Origin: an uncultured virus (IMG/VR IMGVR_UViG_3300032931_000293)
Taxonomy: Duplodnaviria; Heunggongvirae; Uroviricota; Caudoviricetes
IMG/VR virus record: IMGVR_UViG_3300032931_000293
Reading direction: 5' to 3' (one strand)
Length of the DNA: 20,000 nt
The notes beneath the pieces are model-generated. The model ran no database searches. It saw nothing but the letters and a program-made list of their open reading frames with translations, and was not told where the DNA came from. The position numbers and the translations under genes were made by a program. Below are positions 4,237 through 19,653 of this stretch, piece after piece (the stretch's first letter is position 1; the number at the start of each line of letters is the position of its first letter).

Positions 4237-4491
4237 ATGATTAAAACTCTTAGTAACGTTCATTATCATATGGACATGGGTTGCGGAATTGATGTATGGC
4301 GCATTGTTGGTGATGATGAAGAGGGTAGAACCAAGTCGATTTCGACCCCCGTCAAAATGGATGAGAAAAACGACATTCTAACTACCGCTAGTGGTTCGGT
4401 GTATCATATCACTAACTATAGTGGTAGTCGTGAAATGTTCATTGCCCAAGTGGTGAAGGACATTGCAAACGGAGGGTATGAAGTCCGTTGA
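4237..4491 (+). CDS. Hypothetical phage protein
   Basis: ORF track 4225..4491; start either 4225 or 4237. Confidence 0.7.
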   Translation: MIKTLSNVHYHMDMGCGIDVWRIVGDDEEGRTKSISTPVKMDEKNDILTTASGSVYHITNYSGSREMFIAQVVKDIANGGYEVR

Positions 4492-4536
4492 CTTCTACTC
4501 TCAAGCCGCTATAAAGCTACTCACAAGGAAACTATC

Positions 4537-4740
4537 ATGGCCACCATTAGACTTAATGCGTTTGACAAGGATTCAAGCGGATCCTACTCGGAAACGGTTG
4601 AAGTTTCCTCCCTTGATGAACTCAAGGCAAAGGAAAAGGTGTTTGATGGTGCGGTTCCCTTCACTCGGTTCTATTTTGACCATGAAGTGTTGGAGTGTAA
4701 CGATGAAGCTATTGAACAATATTGTGATGAATTGATTTGA
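4537..4740 (+). CDS. Hypothetical acidic protein
   Basis: Promoter 4488, SD AAGGA. Confidence 0.8.
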   Translation: MATIRLNAFDKDSSGSYSETVEVSSLDELKAKEKVFDGAVPFTRFYFDHEVLECNDEAIEQYCDELI

Positions 4741-9184: not shown

Positions 9185-9223
9185 AATAAAAGTGGCTTAG
9201 AGTAATTCTAAGCCACTTTTATT
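9185..9223. terminator. Bidirectional terminator between convergent genes
   Basis: 17-bp perfect inverted repeat AATAAAAGTGGCTTAGA/TCTAAGCCACTTTTATT overlapping the endonuclease stop. Confidence 0.85.
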
Positions 9224-11729: not shown

Positions 11730-11960
11730 ATGAGCAATCCAACTAAAGAATATCTTGAAGGTGAAACTCGGGCAATGGAGGATGATGCGGGAGTTAGTAT
11801 GCAAAGTCCTTTCGCAAATCCATACGATGAACGGGATGAGCCGGAAAAGGCTTTCGAGTGGCAATGTGGTTATAACAATTTTAACCATAACCGTAGGAAG
11901 AATATGATGGCACAGATGGAGAGTGAAGGAAGTTGGTACGACCCATACGATTCCCCTTGA
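11730..11960 (+). CDS. Hypothetical acidic protein, leaderless
   Basis: TTGACA(11696)-N15-TAGAAT-N7-ATG. Confidence 0.8.
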   Translation: MSNPTKEYLEGETRAMEDDAGVSMQSPFANPYDERDEPEKAFEWQCGYNNFNHNRRKNMMAQMESEGSWYDPYDSP

Positions 11961-11989: not shown

Positions 11990-12250
11990 CATAACCCACA
12001 AGGAAGAAACCTTAAGATGCGAATAACAAGCCTGTCCTAACTATCTCCTACGATGGTTAGAGGGGCAAAGAGCGTAGGATAGGCTTCGAGTGTTGGATGG
12101 TTCCTATGCTCCTCGAAGCGACTTGCTTTCAGCCGGATGGTTTAGTCAAGCCATTGAACCGAGGATAAGCTTTCATTGGTTAGCAAGGGATTAAAGGCCC
12201 TACCCACTTGCCTAGAAAACAAGGGTGATAAGTGAAGCCGAGGGAATAAG
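11990..12250 (+). ncRNA. Candidate structured ncRNA A
   Basis: Promoter 11957 (N15-TAGAAT); only a 7-codon ORF follows the SD; stems AAGCCTGTCCTA/TAGGATAGGCTT, CTAACTAT/ATGGTTAG, GCTTCGAG/CTCGAAGC and further hairpins. Confidence 0.6.
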
Positions 12251-12341
12251 TTGACTTGCTCCAAAGGGCATATAACTAGACGGGGGTTGCTTGGCTCCAA
12301 CCCCCCGCTTGACTTCTTGAAAAAGACTATAGAATAACTCT

Positions 12342-12833
12342 CGTTGAAAACGATATAGAGTGGCTTAAGAGTGGGACGAGAATCATATGTTGCTAGTACC
12401 AACACCATGATATGGATAATCGGCGGGTATCAAACCATAATCCTATCTAATCAATAGGCAATGTCACTTGGGATAATATCCCTAACACTTCCGGGTGGAA
12501 CAACCGATAACGGAAACTCAATCCTACTCCTAAGCTACTTTATATCTTGACAATCCATGAACCGCCTTGGGTCAGAATGACCAAAGTATGTAGCACGATT
12601 CATACTAATGTACTCTACCCCAAGACCGTTCATAGATTGCCAAAAGTAATCTACCATTCAGGTCATTGAAAGTAGCTTGACTAGCTATCAAGTGAAGGTA
12701 TGATGCAAAGCGGTTAGCTACTGCAAAGCATGACGTTCAATCCGTTCGCCCGAAGCCACTAGTTACACATGGACCTCGATTGACCGTCCCGATGATAAAA
12801 GCAAAGGTCATAAATCATTGCTTCCATGTGTGT
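12342..12833 (+). ncRNA. Candidate large structured ncRNA(s) B
   Basis: Promoter 12309; 25-bp stem 12352-12376/12522-12546 with three G-U pairs, enclosing a multibranch domain; long hairpin 12551-12639; 9-bp stem 12765-12773/12823-12831; no credible ORF. Confidence 0.7.
12657..12758 (+). ncRNA. Possible degenerate tRNA-like RNA (no. 0)
   Basis: GACG-TTCAATC-CGTT T-arm followed at canonical spacing by GCCCGAA-G-CCA; 5' partner TTCAGGT; TTGA/TCAA D-like stem with a hairpin insert. Confidence 0.4.
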
Positions 12834-12931
12834 CTTGACTTCTTGAAAATGCTCTTTAGAATATGATTCATAAGGATAAGAGACTTGATAACGAGTCCTA
12901 GTGGCCTAATAGCTGCGAATATCCTTTATAT

Positions 12932-13055
12932 GAGGCGAGTAAGTTTTATTGGTAAAACTCAACCCAGTAGTGAACGGGGAACTACGCCAAAGTACAAGGC
13001 GACTATCCCAAGTAATGAATGGTTGGAACGTGGTTCAACTCCCGCCGCCTCTCCA
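12932..13055 (+). ncRNA. tRNA-like RNA no. 1 with a ~56-nt insertion in place of the anticodon loop
   Basis: Acceptor GAGGCG/CGCCTC plus T-CCA; D arm AGTTTT-ATTGGT-AAAACT; stem CAACC/GGTTG; T loop GG-TTCAACT-CC. Confidence 0.7.
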
Positions 13056-13095
13056 CTTGACAAAAGCTCTTTGCTAGTTAGAATGTAATCATGAT

Positions 13096-13226
13096 GGAAC
13101 GAAGTATCCAAATACTTTAAGAGGGTTGCAAACTTCTTTTAGTATGGTTTAAGGAACTCTATACCGTACCCAATCGGCTCTGGAGTGGGGTAATTCCTCA
13201 AGTTGGTTCAATCCCAACCCGTTCCA
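13096..13226 (+). ncRNA. tRNA-like RNA no. 2 (class II-like) with D-loop and anticodon-arm insertions
   Basis: Own promoter at 13057; acceptor GGAACG/CGTTCC; D stem TCC/GGA; CTCTA/TGGAG stem; variable arm GGGG-TAAT-TCCT; perfect T arm GTTGG-TTCAATC-CCAAC. Confidence 0.75.
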
Positions 13227-13232
13227 CTATAT

Positions 13233-13338
13233 GAGGGAATAGCATAAAGTCGTGACCTGATCCGTTGGAATGCGCCGGAACTACCTTGATGTACACAAGG
13301 ACTATCCGGAGAACGTGGAGCAATACCACACACCCTCG
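13233..13338 (+). ncRNA. tRNA-like RNA no. 3 with an extended anticodon arm
   Basis: Acceptor GAGGG/CCCTC; TA then D stem GCAT/ATGC; CCGGA/TCCGG stem extended by ACTA-CCTTG-ATGTACA-CAAGG-ACTA; T arm GTGG-AGCAATA-CCAC. Confidence 0.7.
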
Positions 13339-13345
13339 CAACAAG

Positions 13346-13373
13346 AACCCTATCCTAACCGATAGGGTTTTTT
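13346..13373 (+). terminator. Rho-independent terminator closing the RNA cluster
   Basis: AACCCTATC-ctaacc-GATAGGGTT-TTTT. Confidence 0.85.
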
Positions 13374-13418
13374 GTTGACTTATCCAAAATCACTATAGAA
13401 TATCTCCAAAGGAACAAC

Positions 13419-15353: not shown

Positions 15354-15419
15354 ATGACTACACTCTTTATTATTCTATTCGGCGGTTGGCTTCTAAGCCC
15401 TACCTTCAATGAAAATTAA
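15354..15419 (+). CDS. 21-aa hydrophobic peptide MTTLFIILFGGWLLSPTFNEN
   Basis: Promoter 15307, strong SD AAGGAG; overlaps the start of the next gene. Confidence 0.55.
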   Translation: MTTLFIILFGGWLLSPTFNEN

Positions 15420-15957
15420 TACTATTCTTATATTTCTCTCAACTGTTGCCCCTGCATCTGAGTTGAGTTTTACTAACATTAGCCAACCAATGTCAGTAGA
15501 AACTTATGTATTTGGGAAATCCCATCATACTAATCGTAAGGTCGATTGGAATGAAAATAACTATGGAATGGGCCTTGGAATCGCTTACACAATGCCTACT
15601 GATTATGGTCAGAAAATTGTTGACTTTACATTAATTGGAGGTACTTATAAAGACTCTTATAACGAATCTGCTCGATTCTTTATGCCTGGTATTAGACTTA
15701 ACTACGGTAAACGCAATGACTTACATTGGAATATCGGATTTAATGTAGGATATTTTGAGGGGTCGGGGTGCCGTGGTACTGGTATGCTCCCAAGTTTAGG
15801 AATTGGTTGGAATCGATTTGATATTTGCCTTACTGGGTCAATCCCTACTATTGGAGATAAACGAAATCCTAATGGTAGTCGTAATCCTGAAGATAATAGA
15901 AATACTTCAAGTGGCTTTATAGCAACTTTTTTAAGGATCAAAGTTGCCTCTTGGTGA
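15409..15957 (+). CDS. PagP-like outer-membrane beta-barrel (putative lipid A acyltransferase)
   Basis: Signal peptide; SHH...WNENNYGMGLG and YKDSYN align by eye with E. coli PagP WH...YNERPWGGGFG and FKDSWN; amphipathic strands; terminal Trp. Confidence 0.7.
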   Translation: MKINTILIFLSTVAPASELSFTNISQPMSVETYVFGKSHHTNRKVDWNENNYGMGLGIAYTMPTDYGQKIVDFTLIGGTYKDSYNESARFFMPGIRLNYGKRNDLHWNIGFNVGYFEGSGCRGTGMLPSLGIGWNRFDICLTGSIPTIGDKRNPNGSRNPEDNRNTSSGFIATFLRIKVASW

Positions 15958-17089: not shown

Positions 17090-17305
17090 ATGCACGCCAC
17101 TCTCACCATTCCCGATAAGCACTCCACCGGAAAGGCTCATGTCTTTCGTTTGTACCGTGATGGACACATTGCGTACAATCAACAGATCATGGGACGTTTG
17201 TTCTATCGTAGCTTTGAGCGTGCCTCGAAGCGACATGGGTACTATGAGTACCTCAAGGCCGTTTGCCCTTGCCCCACCAAGTATGCTAAGATGCATGCGG
17301 TTTAA
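17090..17305 (+). CDS. Hypothetical basic protein, leaderless
   Basis: TTGACT(17057)-N15-TAGGAT-N6-ATG. Confidence 0.8.
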   Translation: MHATLTIPDKHSTGKAHVFRLYRDGHIAYNQQIMGRLFYRSFERASKRHGYYEYLKAVCPCPTKYAKMHAV

Positions 17306-17345
17306 TGTGACTTGACAAACATTAAACCCACATAGAATAAAACCC

Positions 17346-17699
17346 ATGAAAACCATCGCTTCGGTCGCCATTGAATCCATCGAATCCGCTCGGAAGTCAT
17401 TGACAGATCCGGATTGGCATAAGGAAAACTATGACCTTTACAAGTCATGGATGGTTATGCGGGATCAAGCCCACACTAAGTCCATGAACGAGTGGCGTGA
17501 CTTCGTGAGTTCCCTTATGTATGGATTGATTGAAGACTATAAGAATGGTAGCAAGGATAGGAATTTGTGGACCGAATCCGGTAACATGCGAATTTCCGCT
17601 AATGTTATGGGTGGATTCAAGGATTGTCCCAAGTGGGAAGTCTATGTGTCAATTTCTGTCACCGATCATAAGGTGAGGAATCGTATCTACCCCTCTTGA
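17346..17699 (+). CDS. Hypothetical protein, leaderless
   Basis: TTGACA(17312)-N15-TAGAAT-N7-ATG. Confidence 0.8.
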   Translation: MKTIASVAIESIESARKSLTDPDWHKENYDLYKSWMVMRDQAHTKSMNEWRDFVSSLMYGLIEDYKNGSKDRNLWTESGNMRISANVMGGFKDCPKWEVYVSISVTDHKVRNRIYPS

Positions 17700-19221: not shown

Positions 19222-19653
19222 ATGCTCGTTACCCGTAAGAATATCATCGCTACCGCTCTTAAGATTAGCAAAATGGATGCGGATGTTTCCGAGGCCCTAC
19301 TTTTGAATTTGCTCGATAGCAACCCCACGATCATTCTCCGTGCCCTTGAGATTGGCATTGTCAAGCCACTCTTTAAGGTGGTTCTCATCAATCACGGTCC
19401 CAATAAGATTGGTGTCATCAAGGCTTTCCGTAAATATTGGGGTGCCGGATTGGCCGGACCCTGGATCTGGTCCGAGGGGAAGCCGTACAATGACCTTCCT
19501 TCGGGTGTGTGGGCGCATAACTTGACCAAGGAACAAGCCTTTGATGCATTGAGCAAGGTTAACGGATTACTTATTAGTACCGGTGTTAAGGCGGAAATCC
19601 TCCCTAATGATGCCACCGTCAATCCTCTTCCCTATACTTGGGCAACTCACTAA
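19222..19653 (+). CDS. Ribosomal protein bL12 (L7/L12) C-terminal-domain homologue
   Basis: FKVVLINHGPNKIGVIKAFRKYWGAGL...LTKEQA resembles L12 [27 protein letters not shown]...VSKDDA. Confidence 0.75.
   Translation: MLVTRKNIIATALKISKMDADVSEALLLNLLDSNPTIILRALEIGIVKPLFKVVLINHGPNKIGVIKAFRKYWGAGLAGPWIWSEGKPYNDLPSGVWAHNLTKEQAFDALSKVNGLLISTGVKAEILPNDATVNPLPYTWATH

Follow-up and report, generated by a model that had tools for sequence, protein, structure and literature searches.

A promoter-bounded, probably composite non-coding unit in a phage tRNA-like cluster ends in a conserved pseudoknotted RNA module

The window analysed here is a 20,000-nucleotide stretch of DNA from an uncultured virus, and it looks like part of a large-phage genome. 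It belongs to a contig of 71,257 nt. Besides short uncharacterised ORFs and two HNH genes, it contains a gene at 15409-15957 (plus strand) that is PagP-like (E 2e-10) and would serve lipid A acylation. A 143-aa protein encoded at 19222-19653 (+) has a weak match, below the cut-off, to the C-terminal part of ribosomal protein L7/L12. A promoter of the form TTGAC(A/T)-15/16-TA(G/C/T)(A/G)AT has 28 strict matches in the window, all 28 on the plus strand and none on the minus strand, with leave-one-out scores between 13.3 and 29.9. These sites often stand 6-7 nt upstream of an ATG, many of them leaderless, and nearly every small gene has its own. Four strong promoters (at 11957, 12309, 12835 and 13057) cut a 1.4-kb non-coding stretch into units, and the region studied here, 12342-12833, is exactly the unit between promoters 12309 and 12835.

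A preliminary description had presented this region as an ORF-free, heavily paired transcript beside tRNA-like genes, perhaps one large RNA. Its setting was borne out: the region is a promoter-bounded non-coding unit within a phage tRNA-like cluster, with no ORF longer than 40 aa inside it, and an 88-aa minus-strand ORF overlaps its first 67 nt. That the unit is transcribed is predicted from promoter matches. Because sister promoters leave a 6-7 nt gap before leaderless ATGs, transcription from promoter P2 probably starts near 12342-12343. A terminator scan of the window found none, and a hairpin followed by a T run at 13343-13375, recognized by eye, closes the cluster; RNA ends inside the cluster would therefore need processing. 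The features of the unit are as follows.

12309..12335 (+): promoter P2 (TTGACT, 15 nt, TAGAAT), leave-one-out score 25.1
12352..12546 (+): domain 1, a 25-bp stem around a 145-nt core; lineage-specific, with blank homologue searches
12359-12366 and 12532-12539: the word AAGCYACT in the stem arms of domain 1
12545..12646 (minus strand favoured by wobble pairs): domain 2, a long interrupted hairpin; no homologue found
12647..12763 (+): domain 3, a set of weak hairpins, of which two carry the palindrome TAGCTA in the loop region; a structural pattern scan gave chance-like matches
12671-12678 and 12753-12760: the word AAGCYACT in domain 3
12677..12704 (+): weak internal promoter-like site (TTGACT, 16 nt, TATGAT), score 13.3, the lowest of the 28
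12764..12832 (+): conserved module, a three-way junction with a loop-loop pseudoknot, placed by its coordinates and covariation
12764-12773/12823-12832 (+): helix P1 of the module, of free sequence
12774-12778/12790-12794 (+): hairpin stem PA, X-CUCG/CGAU-Y in the family, with an 11-nt loop
12795-12798 (+): 4-nt linker, NUAA
12799-12804/12818-12822 (+): hairpin stem PB, in the family G.GCAA/UUGC.C with a 12-13-nt loop
12781-12785/12806-12810 (+): kissing helix between the GACC and GGUC loops
12835..12862 (+): promoter P3, score 25.3, which begins 2 nt past the module and marks the unit boundary

The internal site at 12677-12704 could initiate a short transcript bearing the 3' module, and its function is uncertain. 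On the minus strand, a promoter-like site at 12467-12440 inside domain 1 (score 14.9, one of three minus-strand sites scoring above 8) could yield an antisense RNA across the 5' arm of that domain.

The neighbouring units of the cluster have tRNA-like features of their own. The unit at 11990-12308 (+), behind promoter 11957, has a tmRNA-derived look by eye. It contains a tag-like frame that begins Ala-Asn-Asn at 12019, an H-type pseudoknot (stem 12070-12111, with 12083-12090 pairing to 12112-12119) and a T-arm-like end at 12278-12308 that is truncated by the next promoter, and it has no 5' tRNA-like half. This unit gave no ARAGORN or Rfam match and folds with a z-score of -1.4. Downstream, the tRNA-like units 12932-13055 and 13233-13341 (+) share an extended arm (repeat D3) whose internal loop is a symmetric 4x4 ACUA/ACUA and whose terminal loop contains GUACA; the exact pattern of this arm was absent from the viral collection. 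Between them, a tRNA-like unit at 13095-13228 (+) combines a 7-bp acceptor and a canonical T-arm with a UUGCAAA loop and has two long arms inserted, and its 3' end is weakly like tRNA ends in other phage loci. Within 12342-12833, neither ARAGORN nor Rfam reported a tRNA or tmRNA gene, and only at a 70-80% threshold did weak, chance-like ARAGORN calls overlap the region.

We compared the folding of the region with that of shuffled sequences. The whole region folds beyond shuffles on the plus strand (z -4.05), and it does so even better on the minus strand (z -5.36). The signal stems from three stems. The core at 12377-12521 (z 0.09, 113/200 shuffles as good) and the segment 12647-12764 (z -0.28, 79/200 equally good) both lie at shuffle level. 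In domain 1 (z -6.3 as a whole), the 25-bp stem 12352-12376/12522-12546 has exactly three G-U pairs and one A-C mismatch on the plus strand, as described, but the five hairpins that it was said to close fall within that shuffle-level core. Two protein-coding windows of 200 nt, 4350-4549 and 17150-17349 (+), also fold unusually well (z -6.1 and -6.0, versus -5.4 for domain 1, among 99 windows), so that in this genome a favourable folding energy is poor evidence by itself.

The long interrupted hairpin of domain 2 (12551-12639) is likewise present. A feature missed in the preliminary description is that its mismatches on the plus strand comprise six A-C and no G-U pairs, and that the A-C pairs become G-U on the minus strand; for this 6:0 bias we calculate a P of about 0.03 (two-sided binomial test). 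The predicted energy is -52 kcal/mol on the minus strand versus -30 on the plus strand, with z-scores of -9.43 and -5.69, respectively. Domain 2 thus appears to fit the minus strand better. Domain 3 resembled tRNA-Cys or group II intron domain V by eye, but Rfam and ARAGORN supported neither likeness. Domains 1-3 also contain three short GOLLD-like words, which were rejected for want of a model match.

Long-range pairs proposed to tie the region together were examined in the same manner. AATGACC (12576-12582) and GGTCATT (12661-12667) are both present, but their pairing is at chance level, given that a perfect 7-bp complement occurs in 99% and an 8-bp complement in 74% of 300 shuffles; for 8-mer complements, six were observed versus a shuffle mean of 1.8. 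Similarly, AGTGGCTT and AAGCCACT stand where they were reported, but their pairing is again at chance level and both are copies of a word present 25 times in the window. This word, AGTRGCTT/AAGCYACT, occurs on both strands against an expectation of 0.89 copies, and its forms are among the window's most over-represented 8-mers, with AAGCTACT ranking first. Copies lie in promoters, often inside spacers or across the start, and in coding DNA; example sites are 1681, 4514, 5242, 7366, 11118, 15974, 16301 and 9185-9223, the last being a perfect 17-bp palindrome made from the word. Such a distribution, over both strands and over promoters as well as genes, suggests a motif that works at the DNA level, and we consider AAGCYACT a candidate operator or protein-binding site. 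With four copies in 423 nt of the unit versus 0.45 expected (P about 0.001, post hoc), domains 1-3 are the densest spot in the window. These domains could accordingly act as DNA, as a cluster of putative AAGCYACT binding sites and palindromes with incidental transcription. The G-U wobble pairs of the first stem and the strong promoter directly upstream suit an RNA instead, and we regard the DNA reading as unlikely, at perhaps one chance in a few.

Homologues of 12342-12763 were sought widely. There were none by blastn against 50,697 phage records, and none by blastn and nhmmer over the 189 loci gathered in the searches for the terminal module; in 30 carrier genomes or records the best hit had an E of 0.037 and consisted of 19-nt pieces only. 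Two pattern scans of viral sequences gave at least 119 matches and 12 matches listed, all chance-like on inspection. Local alignment of the regions upstream of 122 motif loci with 12342-12764 reached a best score of 30, with shuffled maxima of 24-32, and 0/122 loci showed upstream likeness above shuffled scores, so that the notion of 12342-12764 and the module as a single RNA found no support there. The missing homologues are weak evidence because this phage has few recorded relatives: two flanking proteins have 2 and 1 recorded homologues, viral-collection scans for their relatives were empty, and tblastn of two proteins returned 1 and 0 records.

Rfam returned nothing relevant at E<=1 for the whole window or at E<=10 for a 521-nt region, and weak matches in the region to MIR1861, SpF41 and MEG3_2 were far under their gathering scores. 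The model of the GOLLD 3' domain (RF02032) had no match at E<=10 on the 521 nt, and the same tool scored two GOLLD positive controls at 185 (L015) and 190 (L026) bits. The ROOL model had no match in the window or region either, with GOLLD and not ROOL serving as the control. On this basis we do not assign the region to GOLLD or ROOL.

The idea that 12342-12833 is one large ornate RNA, new or GOLLD/ROOL-like, with long-range pairs and perhaps a switch, draws on the clean, ORF-free promoter-to-promoter unit, the folding of the whole region, the G-U pairs in the first stem, an 11-bp alternative helix (12531-12541/12669-12679) and palindromic loops as in the OLE and GOLLD bridges (PMC12286853). 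Against it stand the blank Rfam result beside positive GOLLD controls, the core and domain 3 at shuffle level, the minus-strand preference of domain 2, alternative helices that are copies of a genome-wide DNA word, and a 3' module that travels without the rest. We therefore judge a single large RNA improbable. The preliminary description had left room for either one RNA or several, and several modules fit best; the region is probably a composite, a patchwork of modules, a view that for domains 1-3 is based on the absence of homologues.

The terminal domain, treated as minor in the preliminary description and placed there at 12765-12831, is real: its stem 12765-12773/12823-12831 is a perfect 9-bp helix, and it is the only part of the region with comparative support. 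In our fold model, both hairpins stack directly on P1 and are joined by the 4-nt linker. The module is present as a single copy in the window, scoring 76 bits with a model that includes the window copy itself. We evaluated the fold with 101 rows that were not used for the model, although the rows are related, include one weak second match in L134, and were aligned by fitting to P1 and the kissing helix. In this set 93.6% of cells pair versus 77.8% when shuffled, a value reached by 0/500 shuffles, and slid-register controls gave 25-53% pairing. The kissing helix is 95.8% paired, and 25/101 rows lack pairing at the X-Y position of PA. Two-sided changes were found at 9/9 pairs of P1, 1/4 of PA, 2/5 of the kissing helix and 3/5 of PB. 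A separate 31-row set agrees with the covariation, and alignment A1 was made without L016, L020, L025, L032 and L036, which duplicate other rows. In a third set of 113 rows (13/126 rows dropped for short P1, and 2 more for an extra base), mutual information ranks only pairs consistent with Watson-Crick pairing at the top, and the 12 strongest are all model pairs or extensions of P1.

With about 22 core bases fixed in the search patterns, the invariance of these bases is circular and the three central pairs of PA were unable to vary in the pattern set. Positions outside the fixed bases are also near-invariant, for example in 97-100 of 100 rows at eight positions. The copy in phage Zooman, found by BLAST outside the search pattern (37 bits), has five Watson-Crick pairs in PA, including a U-A to C-G swap, and thereby supplies the compensatory change otherwise missing in hairpin A; on visual inspection, P1 and hairpin B of this copy pair with a one-base shift of register. 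The window copy itself has a G-C to A-U swap in PB, and compensatory changes are present in all four helices. By nearest-neighbour energies the P1-PA-PB junction (-7.2 kcal/mol) shows no gain over P1 alone (-7.6), and therefore the fold needs tertiary contacts. Taken together, the sequence comparisons demonstrate the predicted fold of the module, its strand and its independence of context, and we are nearly certain that it represents a real RNA family.

An initial blastn search matched only 12775-12821; the matches were in Sulfitobacter phages and in Francesca and Dorin, which are Rhodococcus phages. A pattern scan of the viral collection gave 33 true copies among 35 matches (L011 and L024 were excluded as chance matches) and then 3 more, and scans of metagenomes and bacterial genomes gave at least 118 and 2 matches, respectively. 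In total, the family comprises at least 130 distinct versions among at least 189 loci. Cultured carriers are phages of Rhodococcus, Microbacterium (Zooman, on Microbacterium foliorum) and Sulfitobacter (pCB2047), and the carriers' hosts belong to the Actinomycetota, Alphaproteobacteria and Acidobacteriota. No Rfam family models the module in the window or in 49 distinct loci.

A tRNA or tmRNA is present in 79 of the 129 distinct loci listed. Within about 300 nt of the module in these loci, 161 tRNA/tmRNA genes lie on its strand and 0 on the opposite strand, and in 44/129 the module is at most 15 nt from one. There is no polarity: 31 modules abut a tRNA 3' end, 25 a 5' end and 12 both, and in the 31 loci within 15 nt the distance from the tRNA 3' end to the start of P1 spreads from -2 to 11 nt. 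The module stands on either side of a tRNA at 0-17 nt or far from tRNAs, with no preference for the isotype beside it. In four loci (L008, L029, L110 and L162) it fills the spacer of a permuted two-piece tmRNA, a spacer that is absent from the mature RNA (PMC11915505). Among the 49 Rfam-scanned loci, it also lies inside two miniature RNase P-like RNAs, at the place expected for the specificity domain; these score 21 and 39 bits, below gathering, and contain both catalytic signature blocks. One copy is carried by 15/18 records and 2-3 copies by 3/18, and a promoter-like site lies within 75 nt upstream in 7/122 loci, compared with 0 for the reverse strand. The small phage-like records from Sulfitobacter have the module in a gap upstream of terminase genes. 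A long conserved stalk of about 20 bp bears the module and fills the post-tRNA gap in L053, L076, L086, L100, L108 and L156. Structured RNAs that contain or adjoin the module are listed here.

L085:809-1114 (-): RNase P-like RNA with a reduced specificity domain carrying the module, metagenome contig
L127:844-1113 (-): RNase P-like RNA with a reduced specificity domain carrying the module, metagenome contig
L015:1561-2022 and L026:1567-2036 (-): GOLLD beside the module, which follows the GOLLD gene
L084:878-1019 (-): skipping-rope RNA beside the module
L189:1777-2009 (+): HEARO-like match beside the module

We compared the module with known RNAs. Like GOLLD and ROOL, it is a phage non-coding RNA near tRNA-like genes with kissing loops, but its conserved part is 70 nt versus 500-800, and it is separate from GOLLD where both occur. 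Species 1 and 2 of phage T4 (RNAC/RNAD) are small, stable, structured RNAs of a tRNA cluster whose function is unknown. The likeness to them is by description, in that they are co-transcribed with phage tRNAs and probably freed by tRNA processing, but the module also occurs in tmRNA spacers, in RNase P-like RNAs and across several host phyla. In the SRP Alu domain and the purine riboswitch a three-way junction is locked by a loop-loop pseudoknot; the module differs in having no junction nucleotides between P1 and the hairpins, has no Rfam match to these RNAs, and was not found in 5' leaders of metabolic genes. The twister ribozyme is of similar size, and the module can be drawn with a terminal loop that pairs to both strands of an internal loop. 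However, twister needs P1, P2 and P4 with T1 (L4-L1) and T2 (L4-L2) (PMC5408937), and by comparison that drawing has two nested stems only, with both extra helices to one internal loop. Rfam gave no twister match in the window or the 49 loci. A non-circularly permuted twister also differs in topology, and PMC10085705 reports finding no such candidates. An HDV fold with a catalytic C in J4/2 was rejected as well: the helices that covary make up a junction whose loops kiss, and no HDV-type Rfam model matched. Literature searches yielded no description of the module and no occurrence of three of its core strings in the text searched, and its core sequence had 0 matches in six supplement files of Fremin et al. 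2023 (PMC10690425). It may be an unnamed candidate in the alignments of PMC10690425 or the supplement of PMC5737381. We file it as a new family within the structured RNAs of phage tRNA clusters, uncatalogued in Rfam.

Our main reading combines a composite unit with a portable module that acts in trans, and we give it a probability of roughly 0.4. P2 would drive a precursor that carries the lineage-specific hairpins of domains 1-3, partly built from the genome-wide DNA word, and ends in an autonomous module of 60-70 nt; in the window, transcription from the weak site at 12677 may yield the module as well. Phages would park the module on whatever stable transcript is available. From tRNA and tmRNA spacers it would be freed by tRNA-type processing; alternatively, RNase P RNA would present it as a peripheral domain. 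As a rigid, structured ligand or decoy it would then act in trans on a factor that different bacterial phyla have in common, the candidate targets being small molecules and proteins of the host or of its defence. Position is nearly irrelevant, one copy is enough and the sequence barely varies across host phyla, which would point to stable expression and trans action. We counted in favour the single copy in most records, the lack of polarity and isotype preference, the upstream promoter-like sites in 7/122 loci, the copies inside RNase P-like RNAs and the spread of hosts, and we counted against it the three records with 2-3 copies, which suit a cis role. This role as a trans-acting ligand or decoy on stable transcripts is thus a candidate that we hold tentatively.

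Near-invariant unpaired bases and a pseudoknot within 60-70 nt equally match the ribozyme profile by the criteria of PMC10085705. The module could thus be a new class of self-cleaving ribozyme that cuts polycistronic tRNA/tmRNA precursors of phages. Its size, its pseudoknot, its closeness to tRNA and tmRNA genes, all on its own strand, and its place in the discarded spacers of four permuted tmRNAs agree with this, and theta ribozymes, minimal HDV-like and pseudoknotted RNAs beside phage tRNA genes on the same strand, set a precedent (PMC10879173). In contrast to theta ribozymes, 77% of which lie within 1 nt of a tRNA end with the cleavage site at the tRNA 3' end (PMC10879173), the module is closed by one stem, has a junction-plus-kissing-loop topology, stands on either tRNA side and keeps no fixed distance or polarity. 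A theta/HDV-like position, with the 5' end about 1-5 nt from a tRNA 3' end, was not the pattern found, since P1 falls within 15 nt in 31 of the 129 loci listed. The module is also mostly present once per genome, and a ribozyme would cut the two RNase P-like RNAs that contain it. Rfam found no known self-cleaving family in the 49 distinct loci, though ribozymes tend to cluster (PMC10085705). We consider self-cleavage a doubtful candidate. The module might instead be an RNA-RNA docking or oligomerising tag, with loop A of one molecule pairing to loop B of another in the style of phi29 pRNA; this putative pairing would gather RNAs that carry the tag (RNase P, pre-tRNA, tmRNA) or deliver them to the prohead. 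AACC/GGUU loops, which we take to be the phi29 pRNA loop sequences, occur in 11/101 module rows. The helices of pRNA are much longer than those of the module, however, and no Rfam pRNA match was found in the window or region. The module is a three-way junction with two complementary loops, and pRNA self-associates through such loops (PMC4201828). The module is found on both enzyme-like RNA and substrate-type transcripts, and upstream of terminase genes in the small Sulfitobacter phage-like records, but mostly in the tRNA clusters of large phages. Covariation is blind to intra- versus intermolecular pairs, and single copies in most genomes speak against docking, which we rate as rather improbable.

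A broader formulation takes the module as a portable domain grafted onto unrelated RNAs, either a loop-swapping docking tag that replaces the tRNA-reading half of a miniature phage RNase P and so joins the enzyme and tagged precursors, or a new self-cleaving ribozyme; we think this unlikely, though by no means negligible. The compact knot with paired ends, found on either tRNA side and at the 3' end of the unit, could also have a passive role, protecting ends against exonucleases or insulating the folding of neighbouring RNAs. A roadblock would not require near-invariant sequence across host phyla, and neither a discarded tmRNA spacer nor the interior of an RNase P-like RNA needs end protection, which leaves this role very improbable.

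The analysis of domains 1-3 indicates that palindromes and a repeated DNA word, patched together, can give a region an ornate look. The terminal module, in contrast to its surroundings, is a fold of 60-70 nt that is nearly unchanged in phages of three bacterial phyla. Being so conserved, and accepted in RNase P-like RNAs as well as in the spacers of tRNAs and tmRNAs, it must meet a tight structural demand. Its small size, the more than 130 natural variants and the cultured carriers, which grow on harmless hosts, make the role of the unexplained RNAs of phage tRNA clusters directly testable.
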